From Escherichia coli (GTDB taxonomy: Bacteria; Pseudomonadota; Gammaproteobacteria; Enterobacterales; Enterobacteriaceae): DNA of 64,000 nucleotides. The notes under the pieces are model-generated. The model saw only the letters and a list, made by a program, of their open reading frames with translations, was not told the DNA's origin and did not search any database. The stretch is taken from the NCBI RefSeq assembly GCF_003018115.1, contig NZ_CP027457.1; one strand, given 5' to 3'. The translations under genes were made by a program, and so were the position numbers. Below, piece after piece: positions 1,889 through 12,513 of the stretch (positions are counted from its first letter, which is position 1; each line of letters starts with the position of its first letter).

Positions 1889-2818
1889 TTAAAGCTCGAG
1901 CGCCGCTGCCATCGCTGAAGGTTCGTTCAGCGCCGAGGCGGTCAGGGTGTCGACAATGCGTTTCGTCAGGCCAGTAAGCACTTTGCCCGGGCCGACTTCA
2001 TAGAGATGTTCTACGCCTTGCGCTGCCATGTACTCAACAGACTTCGTCCACTGAACCGGGTTATACAACTGACGTACCAGTGCGTCACGAATGGCATCAC
2101 CATTGGTTTCGCATTTCACATCAACGTTATTCACAACAGGAACTGTTGGTGCGTTAAAGGTGATTTTCGCTAATTCTACTGCCAGTTTGTCGGCTGCTGG
2201 TTTCATCAGCGCACAGTGAGACGGTACGCTCACTGGTAACGGCAGAGCGCGTTTTGCGCCCGCAGCTTTACAGGCAGCGCCAGCACGCTCAACCGCTTCT
2301 TTATGACCGGCAATAACCACCTGTCCCGGAGAGTTAAAGTTTACCGGAGAAACGACCTGACCTTCTGCAGCTTCTTCACACGCTTTCGCAATAGACGCAT
2401 CATCCAGACCGATGATTGCCGCCATAGCGCCCGTACCTTCCGGTACGGCTTCTTGCATGAACTTGCCGCGCATCTCAACCAGACGCACCGCATCAGCGAA
2501 ATCAATCACACCAGCGCAAACCAGCGCGGAGTATTCCCCCAGGCTGTGACCGGCCATCAATGCCGGTGCTTTACCGCCCTGCTGCTGCCATACGCGGTAC
2601 AGCGCAACAGATGCAGTCAACAGCGCTGGCTGGGTTTGCCAGGTTTTATTCAGTTCTTCAGCTGGCCCCTGCTGGGTCAGCGCCCACAGGTCGTAGCCCA
2701 GCGCCGCAGAAGCTTCAGCAAACGTTTCTTCGACAATTGGATAGCTCGCCGCCATATCAGCCAGCATTCCAACGGTTTGAGAACCCTGTCCAGGGAACAC
2801 AAATGCAAATTGCGTCAT
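1889..2818 (-). CDS. fabD: malonyl-CoA:ACP transacylase
   Basis: 309-aa ORF MTQFAFVFPGQGSQTVGML... with GHSLGEY active-site motif. Confidence 0.95.
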   Translation of the reverse strand: MTQFAFVFPGQGSQTVGMLADMAASYPIVEETFAEASAALGYDLWALTQQGPAEELNKTWQTQPALLTASVALYRVWQQQGGKAPALMAGHSLGEYSALVCAGVIDFADAVRLVEMRGKFMQEAVPEGTGAMAAIIGLDDASIAKACEEAAEGQVVSPVNFNSPGQVVIAGHKEAVERAGAACKAAGAKRALPLPVSVPSHCALMKPAADKLAVELAKITFNAPTVPVVNNVDVKCETNGDAIRDALVRQLYNPVQWTKSVEYMAAQGVEHLYEVGPGKVLTGLTKRIVDTLTASALNEPSAMAAALEL

Positions 2819-2833
2819 GTTTTAATCCTTATC

Positions 2834-3787
2834 CTAGAAACGAACCAGCGCGGAGCCCCAAGTGAACCCACCGCCAAAGGCTTCAAGCAGAACCAACTGC
2901 CCCGGCTTAATGCGCCCGTCGCGTACAGCTTCATCCAGCGCGCACGGGACAGAGGCCGCAGAGGTATTACCGTGGCGATCCAGCGTCACCACGACATTGT
3001 CCATAGACATACCGAGTTTTTTCGCCGTTGCACTGATAATACGCAGGTTAGCCTGATGCGGAACCAGCCAGTCCAGTTGAGAACGGTCAAGATTATTCGC
3101 CGCCAGCGTCTCATCAACGATGTGCGCCAGTTCCGTTACCGCAACCTTGAAGACTTCGTTGCCCGCCATCGTCAGATGAATTGAATTCTCTGGATTCACG
3201 CGGTCGGCGTTTGGCAGCGTCAGCAATTCACCATAACTACCGTCGGCATGCAGATGGGTGGAGATGATTCCCGGCTCTTCAGAGGCAGCCAGCACCGCAG
3301 CGCCCGCACCATCGCCAAAAATAATAATAGTCCCACGATCTGTTGGATCGCAGGTGCGCGCCAGTACATCGGAACCGACGACCAGAGCATACTTCACCGC
3401 CCCAGATTTCACGTATTGATCGGCTACGCTTAATGCATAGGTGAAACCTGCGCAGGCTGCTGCAACGTCAAATGCCGGGCAACCTTTAATGCCCAACATG
3501 CTTTGAATCTGACAAGCTGCGCTCGGGAAAGCGTGCGTAGCAGAAGTCGTTGCCACAACGATCAGGCCAATCTGGTCTTTCTCAATGCCCGCCATCTCAA
3601 TTGCGCGTGTCGCCGCTTCAAAGCCCATGGTTGAAACGGTTTCGTTTGGCGCGGCAATGTGGCGTTCGCGGATACCGGTACGAGTGACAATCCACTCGTC
3701 AGAGGTGTCCACCATTTTTTCCAAATCGGCGTTTGTCCGCACTTGTTCGGGCAGATAGCTGCCAGTACCAATAATCTTCGTATACAT
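2834..3787 (-). CDS. fabH: 3-oxoacyl-ACP synthase III
   Basis: 317-aa [36 protein letters not shown]..., conserved position. Confidence 0.95.
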
Positions 3788-6646: not shown

Positions 6647-7606
6647 TTAGCGCGCGTTACGCAGCTTTTGCAAACAACGCTTCAAACCATCATCCATCGG
6701 CGCTTCGATACGCATCACCTCACCGGTCCCCGGATGGGTAAACTTCAACGCTGCGGCGTGCAGGAACAGACGATTTAATCCCGTGCCTGCTTCAGTGAGC
6801 TGTCTGTCAAATTCACGGTCACCGTAGCGATCGTCAAAGGCAATCGGATGACCTGCATACTGTGTATGCACACGGATCTGATGAGTACGCCCTGTTACCG
6901 GACTACAACGCACCAGGGTGGCAAATGCATAGCGTTCTTCCACTTTAAAGCGTGTTTCCGACGGTTTGCCTTCCTGACTCACACGCACGATACGTTCGCC
7001 GCTTTGCAGAATATTTTTCAGTAACGGTGCTTGAACGCTCTTCACATGCGACTGCCACTGACCGCGCACCAGCGCCAGGTAATCTTTTTGCATCCCTTTT
7101 TCACGTAATTGCTCATGCAGAGAACGCAACGCCGAGCGTTTTTTCGCTACCAGCAACACACCTGAGGTGTCCCGGTCAAGACGATGAACCAGTTCAAGGA
7201 ACCGCGCTTCCGGGCGCAACGCCCGCAAACCTTCAATAACGCCGAAGCTTAAACCACTGCCGCCATGTACCGCCGTACCGGAAGGTTTATTCAGCACCAG
7301 GATGTGATCATCTTCATATAAGATGACGTCCGCCAGCGCCGCCACCTTTTGCAGATGTGGTGAAACCGCCTCTTCTTCCCGCTCAGCAACGCGAACCGGT
7401 GGGATACGCACCTCATCACCCGCTTCGAGTTTATATTCAGGCTTAATACGTTTTTTGTTCACCCGCACTTCGCCTTTACGCAAAATACGGTAAATCATAC
7501 TTTTTGGTACGCCTTTCAATTGGGTACGCAAAAAGTTATCGATACGTTGCCCCGCTTCGTCAGCGGTGATAGCAACAATTTTTACGGATGGAGTCTCTGT
7601 TTTCAT
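6647..7606 (-). CDS. rluC: 23S rRNA pseudouridine synthase RluC
   Basis: 319-aa ORF with S4 domain and RluA-family HRLDRDTSG motif. Confidence 0.93.
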   Translation of the reverse strand: MKTETPSVKIVAITADEAGQRIDNFLRTQLKGVPKSMIYRILRKGEVRVNKKRIKPEYKLEAGDEVRIPPVRVAEREEEAVSPHLQKVAALADVILYEDDHILVLNKPSGTAVHGGSGLSFGVIEGLRALRPEARFLELVHRLDRDTSGVLLVAKKRSALRSLHEQLREKGMQKDYLALVRGQWQSHVKSVQAPLLKNILQSGERIVRVSQEGKPSETRFKVEERYAFATLVRCSPVTGRTHQIRVHTQYAGHPIAFDDRYGDREFDRQLTEAGTGLNRLFLHAAALKFTHPGTGEVMRIEAPMDDGLKRCLQKLRNAR

Positions 7607-7723
7607 GGTTGGCGATTCTAATTAGCCAACAGGATTCGCGCCACTCATTTTTCTATGCTTATATTTACTTTTGCACCTTATTACTTCACTGCGTGATCAC
7701 TTTATTGATGGTTATTAAACCAA

Positions 7724-8098
7724 TCACCAGCAAGAAGTGAAAAAACTGTGAGTAAGCGGGTGATAAATGGTAAAAGTCATCTTGCTATAACAAGGCTTGC
7801 AGTGGAATAATGAGGCCGTTTCCGTGTCCATCCTTGTTAAAACAAGAAATTTTACGGAATAACCCATTTTGCCCGACCGATCATCCACGCAGCAATGGCG
7901 TAAGACGTATTGATCTTTCAGGCAGTTAGCGGGCTGCGGGTTGCAGTCCTTACCGGTAGATGGAAATATTTCTGGAGAGTAATACCCAGTCTGTTTCTTT
8001 GATAATTGCGCTGTTTTTCCGCATGAAAAACGGGCAACCGACACTCTGCGCCTCTTTGAGCTGACGATAACCGTGAGGTTGGCGACGCGACTAGACAC
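7724..8098 (-). CDS. questionable ORF antisense to the rne leader (position of K-12 yceQ)
   Basis: 124-aa ORF overlapping the rne 5' UTR on the opposite strand; Cys-rich, atypical composition; likely non-coding. Confidence 0.25.
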
Positions 8099-8178
8099 GA
8101 GGCCATCGGTTCACACCCGGAAAGGCGTTACTTTGCCCGCAGCTTAGTCGTCAATGTAAGAATAATGAGTAAGTTACG
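7818..8178 (+). promoter_or_regulatory. rne 5' untranslated leader (autoregulatory, RNase E-sensitive)
   Basis: Long non-coding stretch upstream of the rne ATG; ~361-nt leader length assumed from E. coli, boundaries approximate. Confidence 0.6.
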
Positions 8179-11100
8179 ATGAAAAGAATGTTAATCAACG
8201 CAACTCAGCAGGAAGAGTTGCGCGTTGCCCTTGTAGATGGGCAGCGTCTGTATGACCTGGATATCGAAAGTCCAGGGCACGAGCAGAAAAAGGCAAACAT
8301 CTACAAAGGTAAAATCACCCGCATTGAACCGAGTCTGGAAGCTGCTTTTGTTGATTACGGCGCTGAACGTCACGGTTTCCTCCCACTAAAAGAAATTGCC
8401 CGCGAATATTTCCCTGCTAACTACAGTGCTCATGGTCGTCCCAACATTAAAGATGTGTTGCGTGAAGGTCAGGAGGTCATTGTTCAGATCGATAAAGAAG
8501 AGCGCGGCAACAAAGGCGCGGCATTAACCACCTTTATCAGTCTGGCGGGTAGCTATCTGGTTCTGATGCCGAACAACCCGCGCGCGGGTGGCATTTCTCG
8601 CCGTATCGAAGGCGACGACCGTACCGAATTAAAAGAAGCACTGGCGAGCCTTGAACTGCCGGAAGGCATGGGGCTTATCGTGCGCACCGCTGGCGTCGGC
8701 AAATCTGCTGAGGCGCTGCAATGGGATTTAAGCTTCCGTCTGAAACACTGGGAAGCCATCAAAAAAGCCGCTGAAAGCCGCCCGGCCCCGTTCCTGATTC
8801 ATCAGGAGAGCAACGTAATCGTTCGCGCATTCCGCGATTACTTACGTCAGGACATCGGCGAAATCCTTATCGATAACCCGAAAGTGCTCGAACTGGCACG
8901 TCAGCATATCGCTGCATTAGGTCGCCCGGATTTCAGCAGCAAAATCAAACTGTACACCGGCGAGATCCCGCTGTTCAGCCACTACCAGATCGAGTCGCAG
9001 ATTGAGTCCGCCTTCCAGCGTGAAGTCCGTCTGCCATCCGGTGGTTCGATTGTTATCGACAGCACCGAAGCGTTAACGGCCATCGACATCAACTCCGCAC
9101 GCGCGACCCGCGGCGGCGATATAGAAGAAACCGCGTTTAACACCAACCTCGAAGCTGCCGATGAGATTGCTCGTCAGCTGCGCCTGCGTGACCTCGGCGG
9201 CCTGATTGTTATCGACTTCATCGACATGACGCCAGTACGCCACCAGCGTGCGGTAGAAAACCGTCTGCGTGAAGCGGTGCGTCAGGACCGTGCGCGTATT
9301 CAGATCAGTCATATTTCTCGCTTCGGCCTGCTGGAAATGTCCCGTCAGCGCCTGAGCCCATCACTGGGTGAATCCAGCCATCACGTCTGCCCGCGCTGCT
9401 CCGGTACCGGTACCGTGCGTGACAACGAATCGCTGTCGCTCTCTATTCTGCGTCTGATCGAAGAAGAAGCGCTGAAAGAGAACACCCAGGAAGTTCACGC
9501 CATTGTTCCTGTGCCAATCGCTTCTTATCTGCTGAATGAAAAACGTTCTGCGGTGAATGCCATTGAAACGCGTCAGGACGGTGTTCGCTGCGTGATTGTG
9601 CCAAACGATCAGATGGAAACCCCGCACTACCACGTGCTGCGCGTGCGTAAAGGGGAAGAAACGCCGACCTTAAGCTACATGCTGCCGAAGCTGCATGAAG
9701 AAGCGATGGCGCTGCCGTCTGAAGAAGAGTTCGCTGAACGTAAGCGTCCGGAACAACCTGCGCTGGCAACCTTTGCCATGCCGGATGTGCCGCCAGCGCC
9801 AACCCCAGCTGAACCTGCCGCGCCTGTCGTAGCCCCAGCACCTAAATCTGCACCGGCAACACCAGCAGCTCCTGCACAACCAGGGCTGTTGAGCCGCTTC
9901 TTCGGCGCACTGAAAGCGCTGTTCAGCGGTGGTGAAGAAACCAAACCGTCCGAGCAAGCAGCACCGAAAGTAGAAGCGAAACCGGAACGTCAACAGGATC
10001 GTCGCAAGCCTCGTCAGAACAACCGCCGTGACCGTAATGAGCGCCGCGACACCCGTAGTGAACGTACTGAAGGCAGCGATAATCGCGAAGAAAACCGTCG
10101 TAATCGTCGCCAGGCACAGCAGCAGACTGCCGAGACGCGTGAGAGCCGTCAGCAGGCTGAGGTAACGGAAAAAGCGCGTACCGCCGACGAGCAGCAAGCG
10201 CCGCGTCGTGAACGTAGCCGCCGCCGTAACGATGATAAACGTCAGGCGCAACAAGAAGCGAAGGCGCTGAATGTTGAAGAGCAATCTGTTCAGGAAACCG
10301 AACAGGAAGAACGTGTACGTCCGGTTCAGCCGCGTCGTAAACAGCGTCAGCTCAATCAGAAAGTGCGTTACGAGCAAAGCGTAGCCGAAGAAGCGGTAGT
10401 CGCACCGGTGGTTGAAGAAACTGTCGCTGCCGAACCAATTGTTCAGGAAGCGCCAGCTCCACGCACAGAACTGGTGAAAGTCCCGCTGCCAGTCGTAGCG
10501 CAAACTGCACCAGAACAGCAAGAAGAGAACAATGCTGATAACCGTGACAACGGTGGCATGCCGCGTCGTTCTCGCCGCTCGCCTCGTCACCTGCGCGTGA
10601 GTGGTCAGCGTCGTCGTCGCTATCGTGACGAGCGTTATCCAACCCAATCGCCAATGCCGTTGACCGTAGCGTGCGCGTCTCCGGAACTGGCCTCTGGCAA
10701 AGTCTGGATCCGCTATCCGATTGTACGTCCACAAGATGTACAGGTTGAAGAGCAGCGCGAACAGGAAGAAGTACAAGTGCAGCCGATGGTGACTGAGCTC
10801 CCTGTCGCCGCCGCTGTCGAACCGGTTGTTAGCGCGCCAGTTGTTGAAGAAGTGGCTGAAGTCGTAGAAGCCCCCGTTCAGATTGCCGAACCGCAACCGG
10901 AAGTGGTTGAAACGACGCATCCTGAAGTAATTGCCGCCGCGGTAACTGAACAGCCGCAGGTGATTACCGAGTCTGATGTTGCCGTAGCCCAGGAAGTTGC
11001 AGAACACGCAGAACCGGTGGTTGAACCGCAGGAAGAGACGGCAGATATTGAAGAAGTTGCCGAAACTGCTGAGGTTGTGGTTGCTGAACCTGAAGTTGTT

Positions 11101-11364
11101 GCTCAACCTGCCGCGCCAGTCGTCGCTGAAGTCGCAGCAGAAGTTGAAACGGTAGGCGCGGTTGAACCAGAGATCACCGTTGAGCATAACCACGCTACCG
11201 CGCCAATGACGCGCGCTCCGGCCCCGGAATATGTTCCGGAGGCACCGCGTCACAGTGACTGGCAGCGCCCTACTTTTGCCTTCGAAGGTAAAGGTGCCGC
11301 AGGTGGTCATACGGCAACGCATCATGCCTCTGCCGCTCCTGCGCGTCCGCAACCTGTTGAGTAA
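8179..11364 (+). CDS. rne: ribonuclease E
   Basis: 1061-aa [33 protein letters not shown]...; catalytic N-terminal half and Arg/Pro/Glu-rich low-complexity C-terminal scaffold. Confidence 0.97.
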
Positions 11365-11379
11365 TAATTAGCTCAAGTA

Positions 11380-11410
11380 ATCAAGCCCTGGTAACTGCCA
11401 GGGCTTTTTT
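11380..11410 (+). terminator. rho-independent terminator of rne
   Basis: GC stem AGCCCTGG..CCAGGGCT followed by a T-run directly after the rne stop. Confidence 0.7.
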
Positions 11411-11559
11411 ATTTCATGTTTGAATCAACATATTAAAATTCATAAAATGGTATCCTTGCTAACCAACAATGCAAAATAGGCAAAAAAAATGCCCGCCCCG
11501 GCGATCCCAGAGCAGGCAGACAAAACATACCCAGTTTCATGATATGTTTTAAAGCGAGC

Positions 11560-12513
11560 TTATTTGTTGAGCTGGAAGAGCGACAATCCCTGCATATCGG
11601 TAAATGCTTTATACGATGCCTGCAATGCCGTTTGCTGCATGATGTAAGATGAAATAGTTGCATTCCAGTCCACATCAACCAGATCGCTCATCTGCTGCGT
11701 TTGCCCTAAAGCGCGATCGCTACCTAATGAATCCAGCGACTCCAGTTCGTTCAGCTGCGTGCCTAATTCCGCGCGAACGGTCAGGACATTGTTCAGCGAG
11801 TTTTTCAGTCCGCGGTTGGTTTTATCTAACGCCGCAGCGGCGGTTTCTTTATCCGCTTCGCTATCCGCGACCGGCGTTTTCAGGGCTGCGATGGCGCTAT
11901 CCAGCATGGCAAAAAGATTGGTTTCAGAAGCGCTACCGTCTGGCTCCGCAACTGCGTTGCTGGTAATACTGTCGAAAATTTTGTCACCCGTGTGCCCTAT
12001 CACCATCGAACGCGAAGCATCGACCTGTTGCTTAATACTTTCTGCTCCACCGACGTATTTCCCTTTCTCTTCGCTAAACGGCGCAGTCTCTGTTTTATAA
12101 CCGGCAAAAATGTAGCGCCCATTACCGTCAGTGGTGTTCGCCAGATTCAGCAACTGGTCACGAAGCCCCTGAATATCCGTAGCCAGCGAGGCCCGGTCAT
12201 CGTCACTCAAGGTGCCATTGCTGGCGTAGACAATTTTTTCCTGAGCATTCTGGATAGCGGTGGTGACCTGGCTAAGTACACTCTCTTCCAGTGACACTTT
12301 TTGAGTGGCGAAAGTACGCGCCAGCGTGTACTGGCTGTTTTGCGCCTGTGCCTGGGAGAGAACAACAGCTTGTGATGCAGCAATGGGATCATCTGAAGGG
12401 TTAACGACTCGCTTACCCGTCGACATCTGTTCGCCGTACTTCATCCATTCTGCCTGAGAATTGGTGATGCCGCGCATGTTTTGCTGGTACATCATCTGGG
12501 TACTGAAACGCAT
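11560..12513 (-). CDS. flgL: flagellar hook-associated protein 3
   Basis: 317-aa ORF with flagellin-like N/C termini, last gene of the flg cluster. Confidence 0.93.
   Translation of the reverse strand: MRFSTQMMYQQNMRGITNSQAEWMKYGEQMSTGKRVVNPSDDPIAASQAVVLSQAQAQNSQYTLARTFATQKVSLEESVLSQVTTAIQNAQEKIVYASNGTLSDDDRASLATDIQGLRDQLLNLANTTDGNGRYIFAGYKTETAPFSEEKGKYVGGAESIKQQVDASRSMVIGHTGDKIFDSITSNAVAEPDGSASETNLFAMLDSAIAALKTPVADSEADKETAAAALDKTNRGLKNSLNNVLTVRAELGTQLNELESLDSLGSDRALGQTQQMSDLVDVDWNATISSYIMQQTALQASYKAFTDMQGLSLFQLNK

Follow-up and report, generated by a model that had tools for sequence, protein, structure and literature searches.

The degradosome scaffold half of RNase E in an Escherichia coli genome: reference length, dispersed motifs and a spurious antisense reading frame

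The rne locus

The window analysed here, a 64,000-nucleotide stretch of the Escherichia coli contig NZ_CP027457.1 (assembly GCF_003018115.1), carries on its plus strand, at positions 8179–11364, the gene rne, which starts with ATG and, according to the list of open reading frames (ORFs), encodes a ribonuclease E (RNase E) of 1061 amino acids followed by a stop codon. The protein matches the NCBIfam 'ribonuclease E' equivalog NF008074 (PRK10811) over its full length (residues 1–1061 on profile positions 1–1068; 2006.5 bits against a cut-off of 908), the gene is 100% identical at the DNA level to rne of E. coli F9792, and exactly this protein is recorded as E. coli ribonuclease E on 517 contigs. 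The neighbourhood is that of K-12 as well, with rne lying between rluC and flgL/flgK in both strains. The N-terminal half contains the expected Pfam domains, namely, S1 (PF00575, residues 36–117), the RNase_E_G catalytic domain (PF10150, residues 121–391, 330 bits) and the thioredoxin-like small domain RNase_E_G_Thio (PF20833, residues 403–488). Just 3' of the rne stop codon, at 11383–11406 (+), there is a terminator-like hairpin, assigned by consensus match only, with a stem of 10 pairs, 6 of them GC, followed by the T-run TTTTATTT. An Rfam scan of positions 7000–12000 at E ≤ 1 detected no RNA element inside the sequence encoding the C-terminal half, the sole match lying upstream, to the known 5' UTR element of rne. 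This is almost certainly the textbook, well-studied RNase E.

Anatomy and composition of the C-terminal half

Bases 9700–11300, which were singled out in a previous sequence-only reading of this DNA as low-complexity and repeat-rich, encode residues 508–1041 of RNase E. The non-catalytic C-terminal half, the degradosome scaffold, comprises residues 530–1061 (9766–11361, +), a boundary that we adopted from the legend to Fig. 1 of Ait-Bara, Carpousis and Quentin 2015 (PMC4435900) and that agrees with the entropy and composition profile. The same paper defined six segments in the K-12 protein, and we used its ranges to place them on the plus strand of the window. The membrane targeting sequence (MTS; residues 565–582, 9871–9924) is the same as in K-12 and is largely kept in Salmonella, and the first arginine-rich RNA-binding segment, AR1 (residues 604–644, 9988–10110), is also the same as in K-12. 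The RhlB-binding site (HBS; residues 719–731, 10333–10371) belongs to a 15-residue stretch that is identical in Salmonella, and the second arginine-rich RNA-binding segment, AR2 (residues 796–814, 10564–10620), is identical in both K-12 and Salmonella. The enolase-binding site (EBS; residues 834–850, 10678–10728), again as in K-12, is covered by peptides of known structure: residues 823–850 (294–321 of the C-terminal query) match chain E of PDB 3H8A, and residues 813–850 match PDB 5OHG. The acidic linker that follows, rich in Ala, Glu, Pro and Val (residues 851–1020, 10729–11238), is the most variable segment and harbors most of the indels described below. The protein ends with the PNPase-binding site (PBS; residues 1021–1061, 11239–11361), in which residues 1022–1058 match PNPase_C (PF12111) with 62.8 bits against a cut-off of 25, and all 41 residues match chain D of PDB 3GCM, 3GME and 3H1C (E = 5.5e-21). 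Judged by its sequence, which is that of K-12 throughout, each of the six microdomains is intact.

The two parts of the scaffold differ in their compositional bias. In windows of 40 residues, Shannon entropy is 3.4–3.96 bits across residues 1–520, 2.9–3.3 bits in the Arg/Asn/Gln-rich part (approximately residues 601–760) and 2.5–3.0 bits in the Ala/Glu/Pro/Val-rich (AEPV) part (residues 861–1000). The former contains up to 15 Arg and Lys per 40 residues (15 in residues 601–640, the AR1 area); in the latter, up to 34 of 40 residues are Ala, Glu, Pro or Val, with no Arg or Lys at all. The 32-residue peptide that the sequence-only reading quoted as an example of the bias comes from the latter part (residues 967–998, 11077–11172). 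Thus, both the description of the region as low-complexity, Arg-rich and Pro/Ala/Glu/Val-rich and its assignment to the degradosome scaffold stand, the assignment being borne out by NF008074, Pfam, the 3GCM, 3H8A and 5OHG peptides and the agreement of the microdomains with K-12. Low entropy and bias were computed here; that the region is disordered and assembles RhlB, enolase and PNPase would follow from PMC4435900 and the PDB entries. The C-terminal half can accordingly be pictured as a series of short conserved microdomains that would attach the protein to the membrane, bind RNA through two arginine-rich segments and recruit RhlB, enolase and PNPase, strung on biased linkers, the Arg/Asn/Gln-rich one first and the acidic Ala/Glu/Pro/Val-rich one second.

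Divergence from K-12 MG1655

RNase E of K-12 MG1655 (b1084, NP_415602.1) also consists of 1061 amino acids, and there is no indel between the two proteins, so that the alignment to a reference RNase E proposed earlier as a check for a changed repeat number revealed no change. The two genes differ at 66 nucleotides, resulting in 13 amino acid substitutions (A557S, T591S, P594A, A598V, H866Q, V874L, I880V, G894E, V902I, Q943H, V961A, A993G and V999I), all 13 in the linkers of the C-terminal half and none in residues 1–529, where the proteins are identical. The six microdomains are likewise free of changes: all 13 substitutions fall outside their 149 residues (P = 0.014 under random placement). 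The dN/dS ratio relative to K-12 is 0.18 in residues 530–1061 and 0 in residues 1–529; the linker 851–1020 alone accounts for 9 of the 13 substitutions, with dN/dS of 0.24. In our reading, the microdomains are subject to purifying selection and the linkers drift, at times gaining or losing residues in frame.

Synonymous change is unevenly distributed along the gene. In residues 583–795, dS relative to K-12 is 0.007, compared to 0.08–0.10 in the flanking parts, and residues 701–750 show no nucleotide difference among 5 E. coli strains. RNA-level constraint on this stretch was considered and rejected, given that third positions in this stretch have diverged no less from Salmonella, Enterobacter and Kosakonia (0.38–0.73) than those in the N-terminal half (0.26–0.52). 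We attribute the low synonymous change to the small sample or to recombination history.

Length variation within E. coli

The length of the scaffold, which was thought to vary between strains, is nearly fixed within E. coli. The C-terminal half is covered over at least 80% of its length in 5424 of the 5425 complete E. coli genomes, and its span is the same in 29 of 30 and 57 of 60 sampled genome rows; this evidence consists of the coverage count and the sampled rows and does not register every small indel. For the AEPV segment taken separately, a second complete genome is also covered below 80%, and in 10 genomes labeled E. coli, the identity of the C-terminal half is only 80–90%. Among the 15 listed members of the cluster at 90% identity, 12 consist of 1061 amino acids, the others being of 1053 and 1063 amino acids and a 92-aa fragment. 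A search for homologs of the C-terminal half retrieved mostly fragments and split gene calls, and was used to find deletion variants, not to derive lengths by species. Common length polymorphism was not encountered; the part of the claim that holds is that in-frame indels do occur, rarely.

The E. coli variants are shorter by 4, 8, 151, 203 and 234 amino acids or longer by 2, each in frame and each retaining the PNPase site. The changes of −4, −8 and +2 amino acids are located in the linker 851–1020, where the −203 and −234 deletions also have their distal ends. One case is GN4738, a clinical isolate from urine whose locus is otherwise intact; it lacks residues 743–945 as a result of a 609-nt in-frame deletion (10404–11012 of the window). 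The junctions of this deletion coincide with two copies of the 13-nt direct repeat ACCGGTGGTTGAA, which encodes PVVE, the proximal copy at 10404–10416 (+) and the distal one at 11013–11025 (+). In EC332 and HCM-27C-1, 12 nt (4 amino acids) are missing between 5-nt AGTCG repeats. The −151, −234, −8 and +2 variants are known from proteins only, and for these, microhomologies of 3–5 nt, too short to establish a mechanism, could be read from the DNA of this window, not from that of the variants. The two variants with DNA of their own suggest that short direct repeats arising from the biased sequence would supply the indel junctions, and slippage or illegitimate recombination may be the mechanism.

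In the −151, −203 and −234 variants, the AR1, RhlB, AR2 or enolase sites are lost, with the membrane anchor retained along with the PNPase site. Given that all three remain in frame and keep the PNPase site at the C-terminus and that one comes from a clinical urine isolate with an otherwise intact locus, such deletions might represent adaptive remodeling of the degradosome in particular lineages. We consider this very unlikely compared to sporadic, neutral or mildly deleterious events: each deletion was seen once, the −203 variant in 1 of 5425 complete genomes and the proteins P0001 and P0023 on a single contig each (the P0023 cluster, with 2417 members, is mostly partial fragments), and nothing points to clonal spread. 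Similarly, we give little chance to the broader idea that the biased linkers are a built-in source of in-frame deletions via short direct repeats, which isolates would occasionally use to shed the RhlB, enolase or AR2 sites and rewire RNA decay. Even as sporadic events, the natural deletion variants, such as GN4738 without residues 743–945, are ready natural alleles for studies of degradosome composition.

Another explanation, implied by the sequence-only reading, is that the region is a tandem-repeat array with strain-dependent copy number, a contingency-like locus of variable length. Tandem repeats are listed in PMC4435900 as conserved in gamma-Proteobacteria, in-frame indels do occur, and short motifs, for example, PVVE, PEVV and EVAE, recur across the C-terminal half. 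In the AEPV part, the recurrence exceeds that in composition-preserving shuffles for 3-mers (45 compared to 33.7, P = 0.001) and 4-mers (13 compared to 6.2, P = 0.01) but not for 5-mers. Yet Tandem Repeats Finder (TRF), with a minimum score of 30, found no array in the C-terminal half (none between 9416 and 11400), the repeats detected in the region being short, imperfect, dispersed families of 14–37 nt with 62–93% identity, and the longest exact direct repeat at an indel is the 13-nt one, in two copies 609 nt apart. Furthermore, a protein length of 1061 amino acids is shared by this strain, K-12 and the vast majority of E. coli, and the indels are isolated, mutually unrelated events, each at a site of its own, with no common unit step. 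The array therefore appears extremely unlikely. 'Repeat-rich' is apt only in the sense of short dispersed motifs, and in the absence of tandem repeats, it makes no sense to compare strains by 'repeat number' in this region.

The antisense reading frame

Opposite the scaffold half, at 9670–11352 on the minus strand, lies the ORF of 560 amino acids that the sequence-only reading considered spurious, codon-aligned with sense codons 498–1058 of rne. In a codon-aligned reverse frame, stops can arise only from sense TTA, CTA and TCA codons, and the frame is open because 560 sense codons contain none of these: the last TTA before the open span is codon 498, and the three codons occur 10 times in the N-terminal half and 0 times in codons 499–1058. 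The C-terminal half is poor in leucine and serine, with 17 Leu and 22 Ser in residues 499–1058 compared to 49 and 33 in residues 1–497, and just happens to use none of the three codons. With the amino acids fixed and codons used as in the whole window, codons 498–1058 would be free of TTA, CTA and TCA with a probability of only 0.0036, or about 0.025 (a hand calculation) with the usage of the gene's own N-terminal half; for the N-terminal half, the corresponding probability is 3.3e-06, the low Leu and Ser content raising the figure for the C-terminal half about a thousandfold. The open frame is thus somewhat longer than expected under the simplest null model, but it was chosen for being long.

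The pattern of divergence is that of the sense frame. In the C-terminal half, the differences from K-12 fall at sense codon positions 1, 2 and 3 in the ratio 7/4/26, changing 29 residues in the antisense translation and 13 in the sense frame, with dN/dS of 1.56 and 0.18, respectively. In Salmonella, three sense TTA/TCA codons place three stops in the antisense frame and leave pieces of 414 and 208 codons, and in Enterobacter and Kosakonia, the frame is fragmented as well. In K-12, the frame is open, as is a shortened version of it in GN4738. The antisense ORF is not a gene; it results from the codon usage of the sense frame. That it could be a real overlapping protein-coding gene, as its unusual length, the low probability of its openness at window-average usage and the open frames in K-12 and GN4738 might suggest, merits next to no credence, given that the latter two copies are about 98% identical DNA and not independent evidence, that substitutions track the sense frame only, that the frame is broken in the related genera, that the translation (rich in Phe, Arg, Leu, Asn and Cys) mirrors the sense bias, that searches of Pfam and NCBIfam found no matching family, that RefSeq annotates rne alone, and that a full-text search of the literature yielded no paper on a gene overlapping rne. 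Gene callers should not report this ORF.

Taken together, we are highly confident that the region is the non-catalytic C-terminal half of E. coli RNase E, of reference length in this strain and with the antisense ORF as a by-product. The importance of these observations beyond correct annotation is small, and the useful results are negative or clarifying, among them that the scaffold has the reference length and that all its binding sites appear intact.

Comparison with other species

The RNase E of Salmonella enterica (protein P0016, locus L004) has the microdomains in the same order as E. coli and is likewise Arg/Asn/Gln-rich, then AEPV-rich. AR1, HBS, AR2, EBS and PBS are nearly identical in the two species; in residues 801–850, divergence at the first and second codon positions is 0.01. 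In contrast, only 353 of 524 aligned residues of the C-terminal half are identical, and the divergence and the gaps, several small indels with a net gain of 6 residues in Salmonella, sit in the linkers. The length variation is clearer between species than within E. coli: rne is 3186 nt long here, 3202 nt in a Salmonella assembly, 3116 nt in Enterobacter hormaechei and 3263 nt in Kosakonia cowanii, and across the gamma-Proteobacteria, the disordered regions range from fewer than 500 to more than 800 residues (PMC4435900). With the family as described in that paper, the present sequence shares the bias toward Arg, Asn and Gln followed by Ala, Glu, Pro and Val, the under-representation of Leu, Phe, Trp, Tyr and Cys, and the embedded microdomains. 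Where the non-catalytic regions of gamma-proteobacterial RNase E are reported there to have frequent tandem repeats as a conserved feature, this E. coli sequence, with no TRF match at the DNA level, has short dispersed motifs only.

Identity and genomic context of the rne 3' region

The ATG-initiated rne ORF (8179-11364, plus strand) encodes a 1061-aa protein that matches the NCBIfam ribonuclease E equivalog along its whole length (2006 bits; cut-off, 908). The S1, RNase_E_G, and thioredoxin-like small domains detected with Pfam all lie within the first 490 residues, and PNPase_C maps to residues 1022-1058. The gene is flanked by rluC upstream and by flgL and flgK downstream (all on the minus strand), as in K-12 MG1655 and F9792, and 517 contigs carry the exact protein, recorded as E. 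coli ribonuclease E. The 3' half of the gene (9700-11364) is 100% identical at the DNA level to that of E. coli F9792 and 95-99% identical to those of 5407 other complete E. coli genomes. The sequence-only reading was right in identifying 9700-11300 (residues 508-1041) as the part of rne encoding the degradosome scaffold, as attested by the NCBIfam and Pfam matches and the identity with F9792; the feature is an ordinary one that has been well described before. Identity of the 3' half is at least 99% in only 8 of the 5425 complete E. coli genomes and 80-90% in 10, the latter probably representing divergent Escherichia lineages labelled E. coli.

Several other elements lie nearby. The autoregulatory element of the rne 5' UTR, rne5 (Rfam RF00040), is found at 7818-8154 on the plus strand (260 bits; gathering score, 180). 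Antisense to this UTR is a 124-aa ORF (7724-8098, minus strand), the C-terminal 106 residues of which are yceQ (b1085, DUF2655), annotated in K-12 and unannotated in the F9792 RefSeq record. FlgO, a 3'-UTR-derived small RNA that the K-12 annotation places directly after flgL, lies at 11483-11560 on the minus strand with 3 substitutions in 78 nt, and a terminator-like hairpin (11518-11490, minus strand) converges with that of rne (11383-11406, plus strand).

Conservation of the scaffold microdomains

The catalytic tetramer of RNase E is held at the inner membrane via the membrane targeting sequence (MTS), and a disordered arm projects from each protomer, binding RNA with the arginine-rich segments AR1 and AR2 and recruiting RhlB, enolase, and PNPase to yield the RNA degradosome (PMC4435900). 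We took the residue ranges of the six microdomains from the same source (PMC4435900): MTS, 565-582; AR1, 604-644; RhlB site, 719-731; AR2, 796-814; enolase site, 834-850; and PNPase site, 1021-1061. For the enolase and PNPase sites, there are also matches to RNase E peptides from solved complexes (3H8A, 5OHG, 3GCM, and others).

Alignment with K-12 MG1655 shows that repeat number does not differ in this strain: both genes are 3186 nt long, with zero indels. All 29 nucleotide differences in residues 1-529 are synonymous, whereas the 37 in residues 530-1061 (66 altogether) cause 13 amino acid substitutions, all in linkers (residues 557, 591, 594, 598, 866, 874, 880, 894, 902, 943, 961, 993, and 999) and none in the microdomains (P=0.014 under random placement). 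The catalytic half has a dN/dS of 0; the value is 0.18 for the C-terminal half and 0.24 for the linker rich in Ala, Glu, Pro, and Val (AEPV; residues 851-1020). Because there is no indel, the microdomains are unsubstituted, and the enolase and PNPase sites match the structures, the scaffold of this strain is complete and of reference length.

At residues 583-795 (9925-10563), dS relative to K-12 is 0.007, compared to 0.08-0.10 in the flanking parts, and residues 701-750 show no variation among 5 E. coli strains. No such reduction is seen here in third-position divergence from Salmonella, Enterobacter, and Kosakonia; the low diversity within E. coli probably reflects sampling or recombination history.

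The antisense ORF

A 560-aa antisense ORF (9670-11352, minus strand) is indeed present and, as originally proposed, spurious. Its frame is the codon-aligned reverse of sense codons 498 to 1058, with shared codon boundaries, and stops in it can arise solely from sense TTA, CTA, or TCA. All 10 such codons in rne lie at or before codon 498, with zero after. In the C-terminal span of 564 residues, Leu occurs 17 times and Ser 22 times, compared with 49 and 33 times in the first 497 residues, and Leu in residues 530-1061 is encoded by CTG, TTG, and CTC. Given the amino acids and window-average codon usage, the probability of an open frame is 0.0036 over the antisense span and 3.3e-06 over the N-terminal half; recalculated by hand from the N-terminal codon usage of rne itself, the value for the span is ~0.025. 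Because Leu and Ser are few and the open-frame chance far exceeds that of the N-terminal half, the ORF length is mostly explained by composition, the remainder being a modest coincidence in an ORF noticed for being long.

Evolution argues against coding by this ORF, and we rejected it as a gene. Differences by sense codon position 1/2/3 number 7/4/26 for the C-terminal half of K-12 and 105/106/303 for Salmonella; between this strain and K-12, 29 of 560 residues differ in the antisense translation and 13 in the sense translation (dN/dS of 1.56 and 0.18, respectively). Two TTA codons and one TCA in Salmonella cut the antisense frame into 414 and 208 codons, and it is still more fragmented in Enterobacter and Kosakonia. 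No family in Pfam or NCBIfam matches the ORF, the RefSeq annotation of the locus in K-12 MG1655 and F9792 contains rne alone, without an antisense gene, and a full-text literature search found no overlapping gene at rne.

Length variation

The claim that the length of this region varies between strains is overstated for E. coli: rare in-frame variants exist, but a 1665-nt query from the rne 3' end is at least 80% covered in 5424 of the 5425 genomes with a match. The span was exactly 1665 nt in 29 of 30 matches sampled evenly down the ranking, and a 510-nt AEPV query gave the same span in 57 of 60 sampled matches. Among the 15 listed members of the 90% identity cluster, 12 have 1061 aa; the rest are proteins of 1053 and 1063 aa and a 92-aa fragment.

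The RNase E of GN4738 (858 aa) lacks residues 743-945, and thus AR2 and the enolase site, through a 609-nt deletion (10404-11012) flanked by perfectly matching 13-nt direct repeats (ACCGGTGGTTGAA, encoding PVVE). In EC332 and HCM-27C-1, 12 nt are missing (11118-11129), with AGTCG repeats at the borders. Variants known as proteins alone lack 8 residues (ETTHPEVI, between PEVV and PEVI; P0147), residues 631-781 (P0001), or residues 711-944 (P0023), or carry a duplicated AD (P0149). P0023 was rejected as a common allele, its 2417-member cluster consisting mostly of partial fragments. All indel sizes are multiples of three, and the C-terminal PNPase site is always kept. The sequence data show selection on the microdomains and for a reading frame open to the PNPase site, with linkers tolerating substitutions and occasional in-frame indels. 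Because the junctions are repeat-bounded in both variants with available DNA (GN4738; EC332/HCM-27C-1), we infer that the indels may have arisen via replication slippage or illegitimate recombination.

In EC332 and HCM-27C-1, both chicken-meat isolates, a toxin-antitoxin pair consisting of TacA (antitoxin) and a GNAT acetyltransferase (toxin) is also inserted between rne and flgL (2258-3042 in both loci, L007 and L008); the window lacks this pair.

Between species, rne does differ in length: a Salmonella assembly has 3202 nt of rne DNA, Enterobacter hormaechei 3116 nt, and Kosakonia cowanii 3263 nt. The alignment gaps lie at residues 551-600, 701-800, and 851-1000, whereas residues 801-850 hardly vary in Salmonella and Enterobacter. 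This pattern agrees with the published view that the microdomains are conserved and the linkers evolve fast (PMC4435900).

In chromosome-scale assemblies (contigs of 4.5-4.9 Mb) of Salmonella NCTC (L004, 1845-5046), E. hormaechei (L005, 1836-4951), and K. cowanii (L006, 1779-5041), gene calling splits rne into two or three ORFs because of frameshifts, two of these inside the C-terminal half; the frameshifts may be sequencing errors or real truncations. One resulting fragment protein, P0064, has been recorded on 7 contigs.

Composition and repeats

The description of the region as repeat-rich was likewise too strong. Short motifs recur in the AEPV part, but Tandem Repeats Finder detected no tandem repeats in the C-terminal half even at the lowest threshold, and the only dispersed families found by DNA repeat search are short and imperfect. 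Recurrence of peptide 3-mers (P=0.001) and 4-mers (P=0.01), including PVVE, PEVV, and EVAE, somewhat exceeds that in composition-preserving shuffles; 5-mers show no excess.

The reported low complexity was borne out. Shannon entropy in 40-residue windows is 3.4-3.96 bits up to residue 520 and falls thereafter, to 2.9-3.3 bits in an Arg/Asn/Gln (RNQ)-rich stretch (~601-760; up to 15 R+K per 40) and 2.5-3.0 bits in an acidic AEPV-rich stretch (861-1000; A, E, P, or V at up to 34 of 40 positions; R and K absent), in which the peptide quoted in the sequence-only reading is located (residues 967-998; 11077-11172). The same bipartite pattern, RNQ-rich and then AEPV-rich, has been described by Ait-Bara et al. 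for gamma-proteobacterial RNase E (PMC4435900).
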